The notes: generated by a model from the letters alone, not told the origin. Shown: positions 46,401 through 55,400, counted from the first letter of the stretch. The stretch is 64,000 nucleotides of DNA from Candidatus Omnitrophota bacterium (GCA_029261035.1 JAJDCD010000023.1:237126-301125); one strand, 5' to 3'. A program made the numbers and translations.

Positions 46401-49400
46401 CTTATGAGGTTGGAAACCAAACAAAGTCTAGTGAACATTTTGGCGTTGTAACAGCACCTATTTTAAATAAAATTTTTGATATTTATAAACACGTTTTCTC
46501 CACACCTAATTTTGAAAAAAAAGTATATAAAGATGCTGTTATCCATTCATTTTTGCATATTTATTGGGGAGTCAAAGGGGATTATTCTCCACTGCCATTA
46601 ATGCAACGGCGAATAGATGATTTTCAACCTGTGGTGAACTTTATTCAAGACGCATGGAATGAGTCCAGAGAAGAGGAGAGAAGGAATGGAATTAAAGATT
46701 TGTATGACAACTTTGTTCAATATCAAGATGAGGGCTCTGCCTCTAGTTTAGGCAATGCTCATAGACCCCCTTTTTCTTTTAAAAACGGTATATTTCGTTT
46801 GAATTGGAATTACCCTGGAAAGGCGGATGTTTATCCATGGGCACCTAAAGAGAGGGGCAGTTTTGCGGAAGCCTTAAATTATTGGTATGGCCGTGCCATA
46901 TTCTTTACGGTGGACGAAAGAGAACCTCTTCATTATGAAGAAGCAATAACAGAGCGCTTGAGTTCTGCTGTTGGAGATTTTGAAAAAATATATAGAGGGC
47001 TTGCTGCCTATCCTCAGTTACGATTATCCAATGTTCTGATTCAAAGAAACTTGGATAAACCCACAGCAGAAGTTGTGGAAATGATAAAGCCACTTATATT
47101 TGATGCAGCAAAAGCTTTTGGGGAGGCTCCTGAGTCAAGAGCTTTTCGTGTTGATCGAAAGGCAGACCACGACTCCTTGATGGTTTTGTATCATAATGCA
47201 GAACAATTTGTTGATACTGTAACTCCGTTTTATCGAGCGCATCAATCCAAAGCCTCTAGTTTGGGTTTACGACCTGTCGAAGAGAAAAAAGTTTCAACAT
47301 TTGATAGGTTTCCTACAGACAAAGATTATTGGGATCTTTTTTGGAAAGAAGCTAAGCTTTCCTCTTCTTCTGTTAATGGGGATTACCCTCCATCAATTTC
47401 GGGTTTTCTAGAACGGTTTTTTTCAAAATTACCTAACAATTTTAAATCAGGACTGGATTTAGGCACAGGAAATTTTCATGCCTTAAGAAAGGCGAGGGAA
47501 CACTTTGATTCTAGAGCAATGACACCTATTCTTATAGGTACAGACTTTGCTCAGCCAGGAATGAGCCCTCCCGAAGGGGTGGTTTTTAGGAAAGTTGCGG
47601 GAGAACATCTTTCCGATCTATTAATAGATGATGAGCTAGACCTTCAGCATATAGAGGCTATTTTCGGAGTGCATTCGTTACTTTATATGAATGTGGAAGG
47701 CACCCTAAGACAAATGAATGCTGTTATGCCAATGGGAGGACAAATTGGATTTGTTTTACATCATGCAGAATCAACCTATGTTTTTTCTGAAAAGTATTAT
47801 TTGGAAATGTTGTTATTACTTGAACGCTTAGATTTATTTGCAACTTTGCGGCAATTCATAAAAGACCCTAGACCTAAAACGTTACGCGTTGTTTATAAAA
47901 AAACAAAAGTACTCATAGACATTATTCTCCAAAAACAAGAAGAAGACCGTGCTTTTAGCGACTCCCCAACAGGAAAGATGATTGGAGAACTGATAGGGTT
48001 GTCTAGCTATGTTACCCAACAAGTGCTTAGTGATTGGCTTAAAAACTCATCTTATGCACATAAGGTCCCAGAATTTTCTACCCCTTTTGATATGATTTAT
48101 ATGATGGAGTTTCTTTCTTTAGATGAAATGGAGGGTTTTCGCGAGGAAGGTTTGGATGATTATATTTATGAAGTTATGAGTCAATATAAAAAATTGAAAG
48201 TGGAGCTAAACCAAACTCACACGGAATATTTGGAAAGAATAGAGGGGCGTTTTTACGGAAGAAAAAAGAAAGCCGCTTTGCTTAAAGAAGCTGCTATTTA
48301 TGGAATGCAGCATAAAGACGAACTTATGGACTTGTTCAAACGCAATGGTTTTGAAGTTGAAGTTGAAGAGCTTCATGATACCCAAAGTAACGGAAGGTCG
48401 TTGTTGGGTTGGGGAGTTACGGGAACAAAAATTTCGGAAGCAATGGAAAAAAAACCTGTTTTGAAAAGAGTTAATTCAGAAATGCCCAAACTTGATTTTG
48501 ATGAAATAAAAATGAAAATCCCAGATTTTAACGATGACTTTTTTGAAAGCGTACAAAACCAACTGGAGCAGTTAGAACTGTTAGAACGCATTGGTTTTCT
48601 TAAAGCGGCGTATGCTATTTTGCAGGACCCTTCAAATTTGTGGGCACAAAACACATTAAATCACGCAGTATACATATTAGATCTATATGCACATTTTATT
48701 TCAGGGATGAAAAAATTTATAGGTGATTATGCTTTTTTTAACCCTTCAACTATTTTAAGTTTGTATTACCAGACTTTAAAAGGCTTAGAAACCAGACTTT
48801 TGCCAGGAGAGCTTCTAGATCACATATTATGGATTCAATCCCAGATAAGGATGAATCAAATAGAAAAAGTATTATTAAGAAGAATTTTAGAATTAAGGCC
48901 TGAAGAAAAAGTAAGGCGTCCAGGGAAAATTGTTCAAAGAGCTCTGTCGGAGTTAGGTTATGAACTTACCCTTTTTGGACAAACTAGCTTTTCTAAAGAC
49001 AACACATACTGGGAGATCGAAATAGAAAAAACCACTGCAGCGAGTTTGGGGAGACTGAGGTCCATGACAACCCATAGGGTGTTTAGTAAGGAAGAAAAAG
49101 AACTAAAAACCAATGAGATCGTTCCCGCAGCCAGTTTAGGTCAAGTGAGGAATCAAAAGTCCGTCTTGATTGATAGAATCCGAGCAGGGTATGAAAAACT
49201 AAAGGAAGAAGAGAAAGTAGAGATTGGTGATATAAGTCTTTTGGTAGACAAGAAAGAGGGAAGGTTTTACAAAACATTTCCTCATCCAGGTGGGAAGAAT
49301 AAAGGAAGTAGAGAGCCGGTTAGACTGGGAGCTAACATTGAAGAGCTTGAGCTTAGGCTTCTAAGAGAAGAAGAAGCTATTGTTTTAGAATTTATATATA

Positions 49401-52400: not shown

Positions 52401-55400
52401 TTTTTTCCGATCTTCAGTTAAACCCTTTAGGTTTTCAATTAGATTTTGTGAAAAAACCTCTAGAATCGATTCGTTTTCGATTTGCTCAAAAGGTTCCTTC
52501 TGTTATGGAGCGTTATGCTCGGGTTGAAACTTTATCTGAAGAGGAAAAAGATTTGTTAAGAGAGGAAGTATATGAAATTGATTCGTCGAGGCTTAAAGAG
52601 TGGCAGCTAGAAAGAGTTCTTCATCGAAAAGAAGTTCCTTTGTTTGATGGGGATTACAGGCAGGTTCTTATTTTGTCTCTTCCAGACTTAAAATTAAACC
52701 CTCTAGGTTTTGGGCTTGATTTTACTACTTTAGAAAAAGCATTAGAATCAATGCGTTTTATTTTTGAAAAAGAAATTCTGGAAATTTTAAAACGTTATGA
52801 GCAATTGAAGGGGCTGTCGGAACTAAAAGTAGAACAGTTAAGAGAAGAAATTTATGCCATTCGAGGAAGGCATCTAACAGCTTGGGGTTTAGAAGGGTTA
52901 GGAGATAGAAGTGCGGCCCCTTATTTTAAGGGAAGTACTTTTAATGCATTGAATACTTTTTTTTCGGAGTTGAATTTGAACTCCTTAGACTATGAATTGG
53001 ACTGGTCCAGCCCAGAACAGGCTACGGCATCGGTTCATCATGTCTTTAATAAAGAATTTCCAGAGCTTATGGAACGGTATCGACGCTTTGAAGAGTTGAG
53101 CTTTTCTCAACAAAACAGGTTAAGAGATGAGTTTTATCAATTTACTCAGAATCAAATGCAAGCGTTAAACTTAAGAGCCGCAACTCAAGAATATTTTCAA
53201 AACACACATGCTATAGCCATGCAGGCTATTTTTCCTAAGCTGGAACTTAATGTATTGGGTTTTAGTCTGGATTGGAGTTCTCCTGAGCAAGCGAGAGCCT
53301 CCCTGAGATTTGTTTTTCAGAGACACATTCCGTCTATTATGGAACGTTATGAAAAAATAGATCAGTTAGATGCAGAAATGATTGAAAGATTAAGAAGAGA
53401 TATCTATCACAACATTTCAAATGCGCATTTTCGATTATGGAAAATACAAAATTTGATTCGCACTAAAGTTTTGGGTGAAAACTATCTTGAGGTTTTGGAC
53501 GTTTTTTTTAATGATCCTCGATTAGGTTTCTCTATCTTAGGTATGAGACAGTATCGTAAACAAAACACAACAACAAAATATCAATGGAAAGATTTGCAAC
53601 AAGCAAAAACAAGTATTAAAGAAGCGATGAGAGAAAATATGCCAGAACTTGTGGATCAGTATGAAGCATGGGAAAGCTTAAGTCTTTTTGAACAAAATAA
53701 CTTACGCGATGATTTTTACGCAATAACAGCAGGGCATATTGCTGTTTGGGGATTAAATAGCGCTTTAAATAATAGAGCAGTTCCTTTTTTTAAAGGAAAA
53801 ATTTTTAATGTCTTGAATGAAACTTTTCCTAACCTTAAGTTAAATCCTTTAGGGTTTGCTTTGGATTACACTACAACAGATAGAGCTCTAGAGTCTATTC
53901 GGTATGTGTTAAGCAAGAAAAAACCAAAGGTGATCGAGGAGTATGATCGCAGACACGAATTGAGTCAGGACGAAATAGAAGCGCTAAAAGAGAAAATATA
54001 TCAAATAAATTCAAGGAGTCTTCTTTTGTGGGGTTTAAGAGGCGCTTTTTCTAAAAAAGAATCTCCACAATTTGAAGGAAGTTATGTTCGAGCTTTACAG
54101 ACTTTCTTTTCTGGTTTGGAGTTAAACCCGCTTCGATTCAGGACAGATTTTACAACGGAAGAAAATGCGATTAACTCGGTGTTATCCAAGTTTGAGAGAT
54201 ACAAGCCTCAACTTTTTAGTAAATATCAAAGTATTGAAGACTTAACGGAAGAAGAAGTGGAGACTTTAAGAGAGCAAATTTATCGAATTCAGCCGGAACA
54301 ACTTAAATTGTGGGGTTTAAGAGGGGCTTTTAGTTATTTTAAGGGAGGGTATCGTGCAATTCTTATGGCTGTTTTTAACCACTCTCGATTAAATTTAGAA
54401 AAAGAAAGTTTTAAGAGAAAACGCAAAAGAAGACGCATCTCAGAATCAGGACGGATTCCAACGGTAGGTCTCAACGTACAAACAGATGAGGAATCGTCTG
54501 CTTCAAGTCTAGGCGAGGATATGTCTGACACGGAAGTTTGGAAATATGGTTTTAAGACGGTCAAAGGAAGCGCGGAGTATAACCCGGAGCTTAAGAAAGC
54601 TATACGAGAATTTTTCCGAGCTTTAAAAGGAAGCAACCCGGACAAACTAAAAATAATATCTGTGGATACAGGAACAGGTGCTTATACAGCAATTAATGAG
54701 GCAAGAAACTATTTAGAAGAGCAAGGTTGGTTACATCGATTTGAGCTGGTGGGTACAGATATTTTCGAACCAGAAGAAAAGGCCCCAAAAGGGGTTCGAT
54801 TCGAAAAAGTAGCTACAGAAAGCTTGTCTGACAGTTTTGCTTTAGAGTCTCTGGATGGCGTTATGAGTGTGCGGTCACTTTTATACACAGATGTTAAAGA
54901 CAGTCTTTTTGTATTGAATCAAGTATTAAAAGTTGGCGGAGAAGGTCTTTTTATTCTCCATCATAAATATTCAGAGATTCTTGCATTTGATAGAGATTTT
55001 CAAGAACAGGTAGATATTTTAAAAGGTTTAAAGTTATTCGCACATTTAGAAACTTTTGTGAAACAGCCCAATTATAGGAATTTAAGGCAGTTGCTGATAG
55101 TAAGAAAAATTATTTCTAATGCAATCCATGAGAGAAAAACAAGAAAAGACTTTCCTCATATTTTAAATAGAGAGATTGGCCTTTTGCAAAAGTTTCAAGC
55201 AGCCATTGACTATTCTGTTTATCTTGTTTTAAGAGACGGGTTAAAGAAAAAGATTACTACGAAGGAAATAGATGAGGTTCTAAGCTTTTTGGAAGTACCA
55301 ACAAACATGGAAGAAGAGTTTCTTCCTTATTTTAACGACCTTATGACTCTATATATCCGTCAATATAGCGGTTTTGATGTACAGACGTATGAGCATTCAG

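Follow-up and report, generated by a model that had tools for sequence, protein, structure and literature searches.

Among the closest described systems to the locus studied here are the giant proteins of the Omnitrophota ('Archaeovorin-type'), for which West-Roberts et al. (2023; bioRxiv 10.1101/2023.11.21.568195) state the cleavage points as unknown and for that reason could not split the giants into units. A more recent preprint on 'multi-enzyme metabolic clusters' (bioRxiv 10.64898/2026.06.07.730766) counts PF08241 methyltransferase domains in 137 Omnitrophota long proteins, reports that 65% of them repeat a Pfam family and takes up the puzzling position of metabolic-type domains behind signal peptides. 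No Pfam family is reported more often in Omnitrophota long proteins than the methyltransferases, and NUDIX and repeated domains are reported as well. Here we analyse a stretch of 64,000 nucleotides (nt), called the window throughout, from Candidatus Omnitrophota bacterium (GCA_029261035.1 JAJDCD010000023.1:237126-301125). It contains two very long open reading frames (ORFs) on the + strand, g1 (34340-42235, 2,631 amino acids, hereafter aa) and g2 (43433-57073, 4,546 aa), and our main subject is a pair of duplicated segments within g2. Very probably, these belong to two paralogous class I methyltransferase modules dependent on S-adenosylmethionine (SAM), carried as cargo by a multi-module Omnitrophota protein whose units are separated by short junctions.

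The window is placed in the Omnitrophota by the sequence of its MnmG: among 185,579 species genomes, the four best matches are 60-66% identical to it, three of them from records named Omnitrophota or Omnitrophica, versus identities of at most 53% to other named phyla. A homologue of the N-terminal domain of g1 and g2 (P0135) is likewise annotated Candidatus Omnitrophica. A preliminary description of the window had called methyltransferase domains in a secreted giant protein unexpected, which was overstated because the host belongs to a phylum known for methyltransferase-bearing long proteins. Beyond the phylum, g1 and g2 resemble the described giants in a predicted N-terminal signal peptide, in their methyltransferase (g2) and NUDIX (g1, which also has DUF218) content, in the repetition of a domain type within one polypeptide and in an adjoining pilin gene. 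They differ in size, at 2.6 and 4.5 thousand aa versus catalogued lengths of at least 10 or more than 30 thousand aa, and fall below both published cut-offs, a gene longer than 90 kb (the 2023 study) or a protein of at least 10 thousand aa (the 2026 preprint). The domain set of the described giants extends to glycosyltransferases (GT), glycoside hydrolases (GH) and peptidases, with a C39 or S8 peptidase close to the N-terminus, and to SecA-like domains; scans of g1 and g2 found no GT, GH, C39, S8 or SecA domains. Methyltransferase modules in Omnitrophota long proteins are already known, and to these g2 adds a small member of 4.5 thousand aa; together, the two proteins extend the phenomenon down to 2.6-4.5 thousand aa.

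Probable methyltransferase modules of g2

Two internally homologous segments had been quoted in the preliminary description, and both strings occur exactly in g2, where they share 36% identity over 107 columns (E 2e-22). Segment 1 (aa 1340-1444, 47450-47764, + strand) spans β1 to β5 of the fold described below, and segment 2 lies at aa 3741-3844 (54653-54964, + strand). The range given for the pair, 47440-54960, correctly located the segments in g2 and stopped 4 nt short of the true end at 54964. Likewise, the homology was real, and the unit that is duplicated proved larger than the 105 aa proposed: BLASTP extends the similarity to aa ~1277-1690 versus ~3680-4100 (28% identity, 429 columns, E 2e-29), and the unit is a module of ~400 aa with a helical insert, followed by a helical tail of ~180 aa. 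The segments very probably represent the cofactor-binding cores of ~400-aa class I (Rossmann-fold) modules, each with its tail behind it. Module 1, delimited by structure prediction, Foldseek and motif positions, covers 47270-49036 (aa 1280-1868), with the class I fold at 47318-48436 (aa ~1296-1668) and the insert between β5 and αE at aa ~1448-1620. Module 2, delimited by its homology to module 1 and to the relative P0002 and by motif positions, covers 54518-56272 (aa 3696-4280). A six-frame scan of the whole window with a profile built from the two copies detected these two copies only.

In its core columns, copy 2 shares 43% identity with the only such module in P0002, a relative of 4,625 aa, and 30% with copy 1; over the whole of module 2, helical tail included, the match to the P0002 module reaches 33.5% identity over 519 columns (E 2e-78). 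Because copy 2 is nearer to the P0002 module than to copy 1, the duplication is not recent, and on these sequence comparisons the two copies are old paralogues.

The fold was examined in an AlphaFold2 (AF2) model of module 1 (aa 1280-1870), in which the predicted local distance difference test (pLDDT) score exceeds 90 over the core (module residues 40-170 and 330-390). In module residues, the strands lie at 60-64 (β1), 87-91 (β2), 104-107 (β3), 130-134 (β4), 158-163 (β5), 361-370 (β6) and 377-387 (β7). They form a seven-stranded sheet with a C-terminal antiparallel β6-β7 hairpin, and the order of elements, β1-αA-β2-β3-β4-αD-β5, the helical insert (169-341) and αE-β6-β7, is that of class I. The structural search suggested in the preliminary description bore out its proposal: Foldseek returned 141 PDB matches at E ≤ 1e-3, the best 50 of which are all class I SAM methyltransferases; these 50 include CysG(N-16), MM_2633, histamine N-methyltransferase (HNMT), TleD, BioC, phosphatidylethanolamine N-methyltransferase and METTL6. 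From its homology to module 1, module 2 would be expected to adopt the same fold.

Residues expected to contact the cofactor are kept in both copies. The h-D-x-G-x-G motif I noted earlier (class I consensus h-h-D/E-h-G-x-G-x-G) lies exactly in the β1/αA loop, as L-D-L-G-T-G-N in copy 1 (aa 1341-1347) and V-D-T-G-T-G-A in copy 2 (aa 3744-3750), the third Gly of the motif being replaced by Asn or Ala, respectively, in a family whose consensus is D-I-G-T-G-N-G. The acidic end of the second strand, described from its GTD string, also stands, as an Asp at the C-terminal end of β2 (D1371/D3776); an acidic residue at this place binds the ribose hydroxyls of SAM in class I enzymes, and across the 44 aligned family members this post-I Asp never varies (44 of 44) and is the sole fully invariant column. 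Both copies further keep the motif I Asp (D1342/D3745) with G-T-G (G1346/G3749), a Glu after β3 (E1391/E3796), a Tyr after β4 (Y1418/Y3818), a His-His pair after β5 (H1443-H1444/H3843-H3844) with a nearby Ser (S1447/S3847), and Gly-Trp in β7 (1659-1660/4063-4064), and they retain every strongly conserved column of the 44-member alignment. The preliminary description had named a non-Rossmann fold and the loss of all SAM-contacting positions as outcomes that would speak against it; what we find is a Rossmann-type fold in the model of module 1 and motif I and the post-I Asp retained in both copies. From this retention, it is most likely that both modules bind SAM and transfer methyl groups.

Whole g2 and each module, compared with Pfam and NCBIfam, gave no methyltransferase match, the modules none even at E ≤ 10, and both 420-aa modules miss the Pfam gathering thresholds of PF08241 (Methyltransf_11) and PF13649 (Methyltransf_25). 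Word-indexed homologue searches with the two-copy alignment and scans of genome contigs with the module alignment found no relatives, and among PDB sequences the two-copy profile matched the methyltransferase YcgJ alone (E 1.3). When 1.84 billion representative proteins were searched exhaustively with HMMER, the two-copy profile returned 127 proteins at E ≤ 1e-3. Apart from g2 itself, these comprise P0002 (E 1e-68), some 20 others of 1-8 thousand aa and, at E 1e-10 to 1e-4, roughly 100 standalone proteins of ~315 aa. Ten standalone or mid-sized relatives were scanned, and every one of them passes Pfam gathering for Methyltransf_11 (21.2 bits for PF08241) and/or Methyltransf_25 (27 bits for PF13649). 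A profile of the 44-sequence family alignment matched 47 solved proteins in PDB, all of them methyltransferases, with YcgJ best (4e-17). Because Pfam-positive standalone members dominate that profile, the independent link to the family is the two-copy HMMER search.

Our analyses support the view that the modules form a divergent, Pfam-undetected subfamily related to the Methyltransf_11/25 (YcgJ/UbiE/BioC-like) small-molecule methyltransferases. With enzymes of these families, such as YcgJ (1xxl), RebM (3bus) and the UbiE/BioC-like proteins, the g2 modules share the seven-stranded fold, motif I at β1/αA, the acidic end of β2, an '...E-x-L...' after β3 and the αE-β6-β7 region ('GF...GW'). They differ in missing the Pfam models, in the insert of ~170 aa between β5 and αE and the helical tail of ~180 aa, in a signature that combines an N-terminal W-x(3)-W helix with LL-Y and L-H-H-x(2)-S, and in being embedded in a protein of 4.5 thousand aa. 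The marks of the subfamily are the ~170-aa helical insert and, beside the cofactor site, a near-invariant Tyr (LL-Y) and His-His (L-H-H). NCBIfam scans of the standalone relatives reached no equivalog and gave only sub-threshold, generic similarity to UbiE, BioC and ArsM, and for this reason a substrate cannot be transferred from them. Small molecules or lipids are the substrates of the nearest solved relatives, and our best guess, by analogy, is that the acceptor would be a small molecule or lipid-like, or possibly a protein side chain. The two modules add members to a divergent, Pfam-invisible methyltransferase subfamily among the enzyme domains of Omnitrophota long proteins.

Junction pentapeptides and the head domain

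Both modules are bounded by closely similar short peptides: ASSLG (aa 1274-1278, 47252-47266) and AASLG (aa 1869-1873) flank module 1, and ASSLG (aa 3690-3694, 54500-54514) and AESLG (aa 4281-4285) flank module 2. The strict motif [AG][AS]SLG occurs eight times in g2 (45857-45871, 46739-46753, 47252-47266, 49037-49051, 49127-49141, 49664-49678, 52151-52165 and 54500-54514) and four times in g1 (35921-35935, 36596-36610, 39467-39481 and 41441-41455), which also has three other xxSLG sites, and is absent from the remaining 25 ORFs of the window (11,677 aa). For the looser [AS]SLG, with nine sites in g2 and four in g1, shuffling predicts 0.2 in each. Between sites, the codons of the motif vary synonymously at every position, which points to selection on the peptide, and a role as a DNA-level repeat or recombination site was rejected on the same ground. 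The flanks of the motif show no conservation, and both AF2 models (module 1 and the head domain described below) have low pLDDT at their ends, where the sites fall. We also considered a phosphopantetheine carrier site (G-x-D/H-S-L) and rejected it, as the flanks are unconserved and predicted to be disordered and many relatives have R-x-E-x-R instead.

In its modular architecture, g2 is built as a signal-peptide-like N-terminus, a head domain of ~500 aa and then a series of protein-sized units separated by [AG][AS]SLG, at which the units would be released or at least functionally separated. Its parts, all on the + strand, begin with the signal-peptide-like segment (43433-43585) and the head domain (43610-45103, aa ~60-557; delimited by BLAST against g1 and other giants). 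Module 1 is followed by repeat array 1 (49148-52072, aa ~1906-2880), with about nine repeats of ~106-122 aa bearing the signature IGDVSLLVNKK...FPTPDGG...YW and interrupted by one ASSLG, and by repeat array 2 (52172-54502, aa ~2914-3690), with about eight helical repeats of ~93 aa and the signature L-N-P-L-G-F; neither array has a Pfam match. Behind module 2 lies a C-terminal domain (56291-57070, aa 4287-4546) common to the closest relatives P0002 and P0006 only, so that we rejected it as a universal partner of the head. The companion protein g1 lacks a methyltransferase module. Behind its head domain it has transmembrane (TM) helix clusters at aa ~780-1030 and ~1380-1645, a DUF218 domain (aa 1176-1268) and a NUDIX domain (aa 1922-2034), each in its own xxSLG-delimited segment.

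The head domain is common to g1 (34400-35920), g2 and 277 metagenomic relatives found by scanning metagenomes with an alignment of four head sequences, from which we took 79 loci (L081-L159); a word-indexed search with the head alignment found two proteins only. It is N-terminal in 79 of the 79 metagenomic loci, in ORFs that mostly exceed 2 thousand aa. AF2 models it with a pLDDT of 81 as an α/β core with a large helical insert, and the residues H99, E127-G128, R276, E381, R495 and TGGFH (519-523) are invariant in 80 of 80 sequences. Its only similarity is weak, to EreC, ChaN, BcR135 and HopBA1 of the EreA/ChaN/Tiki(TraB) superfamily, and Foldseek of the model against PDB gave nothing significant. 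The invariant set is enzyme-like, and the head domain may be the processing enzyme.

Junction motifs recur across this family in more than one form. In a sample of 81 head-domain proteins (205,136 aa), [AGS][AS]SLG occurs 82 times versus 3.0 expected and R[AS]E[VLIA]R 203 times versus 3.4 expected, an enrichment of 27- to 60-fold, and the two are almost perfectly mutually exclusive within one protein. The 60 proteins of at least 1,500 aa comprise 14 of the SLG type, 26 of the RxExR type, one of an AVPAL type and 19 without any. The first site always lies 508-864 aa from the ORF start, directly behind the head; median spacing is 458 aa in the SLG type and 232 aa in the RxExR type, and pairs of sites 15-40 aa apart recur. 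The intervening segments are the size of whole proteins: in L084, HATPase_c, RHS, Methyltransf_23, Methyltransf_31/PrmA and DHDPS domains occupy one segment each, and in L082 a complete PAS-PAS-HATPase_c-receiver hybrid kinase fits in a single segment. The Pfam and HMM envelopes of g1, g2, L084 and L082 contain none of the 35 sites in these proteins, against about five expected (an estimate from the covered length).

The same holds around the methyltransferase module itself, which is flanked by the SLG motif in P0002, P0006, P0007 and P0009 as well and by RAEVR or RSE[VL]R in P0036, P0040 and P0128. P0036 has 15 copies of R[AS]E[VLI]R versus 0.07 expected, with the methyltransferase module between the sites at 4966 and 5279, and P0040 has 11. 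P0002, P0006, P0007, P0009, P0036 and P0040 all have the N-terminal head in common with g1 and g2. Motif class tracks head similarity, 34 of 40 nearest neighbours sharing a class versus 21.4 with shuffled labels; we considered this co-variation as a sign that the head is the cognate protease, but shared ancestry alone could explain it. On one contig (Ga0247727_10000056), L096 uses R[AS]E[VLIA]R (seven sites) and L099 uses AVPAL (seven sites), a difference that hints at cis-encoded specificity and argues against one trans-acting protease per genome. The most economical reading is that the pentapeptides are candidate polyprotein processing sites co-evolving with a protease.

The junction pentapeptides appear to be undescribed. 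The searchable literature yielded no description of these motifs and nothing joining Omnitrophota with 'polyprotein' or with AASLG or GASLG, and results for 'ASSLG' were swamped by strings from the third complementarity-determining region (CDR3) of T-cell receptors; text searches of the two Omnitrophota preprints turned up no description of junction motifs or of a head domain that is conserved. The pentapeptides give a large family, with 277 metagenomic head relatives, a segmentation rule that is explicit and can be tested, and they sharpen the puzzle of cytoplasmic-type, cofactor-dependent enzymes behind a signal peptide.

Activity, release and place of action

Where the modules would act depends on the N-terminus of g2. 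Signal sequences are recognised by the positive-inside and (-3,-1) rules. In a Kyte-Doolittle scan, aa 28-46 form the sole hydrophobic segment of g2, preceded by seven Lys or Arg residues that make up a basic n-region and followed by 'ANA|A', and homologues of g2 have equivalent N-termini ending in AxA-like sites. By these rules, the N-terminus is probably a Sec signal peptide. An enzyme that needs SAM cannot function in the periplasm, which leaves three options: action in another cell after delivery, a pool that is not exported, or inactivity. We infer that the methyltransferases would act where SAM exists, in the cytoplasm of the producer, the prey or a host, and not in the periplasm.

Several observations weigh against a reading of the modules as active methyltransferases freed from a polyprotein. 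Both fall below every Pfam and NCBIfam threshold, so that their family membership is transitive and structural. The acidic 'gDa' position after β3, which often contacts adenine N6, is Ala in both copies. A signal peptide with no other TM helix would export the modules to a SAM-free compartment, and hence implies either delivery into another cell or no activity. In the other 79 head-domain loci, the stretch of up to 3.9 thousand aa available for each contained no member of the subfamily, so that the methyltransferase is optional cargo and no core part, and an obligatory family core was rejected on that ground. No recognisable protease domain was found in g1 or g2, and cleavage at the junctions is itself something that we infer. 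The low scores, the SAM-free location and the missing Asp would all suit modules that keep the fold and are catalytically dead, serving as scaffold or ligand-binding parts of an exported structural protein. We nonetheless consider this quite improbable. The Ala can be tolerated because YcgJ, the closest solved relative, has Thr at that position; all family-conserved positions, including the post-I Asp and G-T-G, are kept despite ~30% identity between the copies, as selection for cofactor binding would lead one to expect; and the standalone members of the family are ordinary Pfam-positive methyltransferases. Scarcely credible is a generic NAD(P)- or FAD-binding Rossmann fold, that is, no methyltransferase at all: although NAD(P)-binding Rossmann domains, too, have a G-x-G loop after β1 and an acidic end of β2, the sheet predicted here includes the methyltransferase-specific β6-β7 hairpin, the best 50 structural matches and the 47 profile matches in PDB are all methyltransferases with no dehydrogenases, and Pfam puts the standalone relatives in Methyltransf families.

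If the modules are active, they could still remain in the chain, with [AG][AS]SLG serving merely as conserved flexible linkers or docking motifs. Such an arrangement would fit the restriction of SAM to the cytoplasm and the lack of an identified protease domain in g1 and g2, and the 2026 preprint (bioRxiv 10.64898/2026.06.07.730766) regards methyltransferase-type content as compatible with anchoring on the cytoplasmic face for TM proteins without a signal peptide. In g2, however, basic residues precede a single hydrophobic segment and AxA follows it, which predicts an N-in/C-out topology or a cleaved signal peptide and speaks against the bulk of the protein lying in the cytoplasm. Moreover, a passive linker needs no exact pentapeptide kept through synonymous codons, nor would it be swapped wholesale for another exact and mutually exclusive pentapeptide. 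On balance, we think it rather unlikely that the units are never released.

A broader reading, which we put forward only tentatively and hold to be somewhat less probable than not, is that g1 and g2 represent a widespread, undescribed class of exported polyproteins, with a signal peptide, a head enzyme, a protease encoded in cis (possibly the head) and effectors that would be cut free, possibly in a prey or host cell. Their cytoplasmic-type units (methyltransferases, NUDIX, DHDPS and hybrid sensor kinases) would then be separated by exact pentapeptides specific to the lineage, [AG][AS]SLG, R[AS]E[VLIA]R or AVPAL, serving as processing sites. If the sites are cut, these proteins would be bacterial polyproteins, an expression strategy otherwise associated with viruses.

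Two kinds of known system invite comparison. MARTX toxins, which belong with other autoprocessing multi-effector proteins, have a cysteine protease domain that cleaves behind Leu, ahead of a small residue, and frees effectors inside the target cell. They share with g1 and g2 a large exported protein, several enzyme modules and unstructured linkers, and by analogy a Leu|Gly cut within [AG][AS]S-L-G would fit the MARTX style of cutting. They differ in that g1, g2 and the neighbouring genes have no Pfam match to RTX repeats, Peptidase_C80 or type I secretion genes, and many relatives of g1 and g2 use R[AS]E[VLIA]R instead. Viral polyproteins, taken as an analogy only, are alike in their protein-sized units, in a short, exact and lineage-specific peptide with unconserved flanks, and in closely spaced double sites that leave short spacer peptides; they differ in that g1 and g2 are chromosomal bacterial genes located by the origin gene cluster, with no identified protease.

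Neighbouring genes and chromosomal setting

The window has a G+C content of ~37%, and its genes run in the order gyrA, gyrB, dnaN, dnaA, tatC, parB, parA, mnmG, a strand switch, yidC, rnpA, an Rrf2 regulator, g1, a type IV pilin-like gene, g2, a Ski2-like helicase, DUF6178, baeRF10 and a CDF transporter. All ORFs of at least 150 aa to the left of a 760-bp gap at ~28320-29081 are on the - strand, and those to its right are mostly on the + strand, with yidC, rnpA and the helicase (57082-59064) as exceptions. The minimum of the cumulative GC skew lies at 26-28 kb, and dnaA, dnaN, gyrB, gyrA, parAB and mnmG stand just left of the gap. The gap is probably the replication origin region, and the window an origin-proximal part of the chromosome.

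Between g1 and g2, on the - strand, lies the type IV pilin-like gene (42735-43181; Pfam matches to N_methyl and ComP_DUS), a position that fits reports of pilus and secretion genes adjoining Omnitrophota giants. Downstream of g2 are the Ski2-like DEAD-box helicase with a C-terminal DSHCT (NUC185) domain (57082-59064, - strand), a DUF6178 protein (59517-61214, + strand, E 4e-102) and a bacterial eRF1-like protein of baeRF family 10 (61417-62547, + strand), a group that may form an RNA or translation quality-control or conflict module. The preliminary description had also read the window as ending inside a separate SAM methyltransferase gene from 63733 onward. A partial gene is present there, of which only weak matches to Methyltransf_12/25 (E 0.003, 89 aa) speak for that identity, and it does not match the profile of the g2 methyltransferase subfamily. 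Elsewhere in the origin-proximal region, sulfotransferase, PAPS reductase and APS kinase genes lie at 203-895 (- strand) and 10976-12222 (- strand), and the interval from 16.6 to 23.9 kb holds genes for a GH94 phosphorylase, a glucoamylase-like protein, a ROK kinase and a sugar-binding protein.

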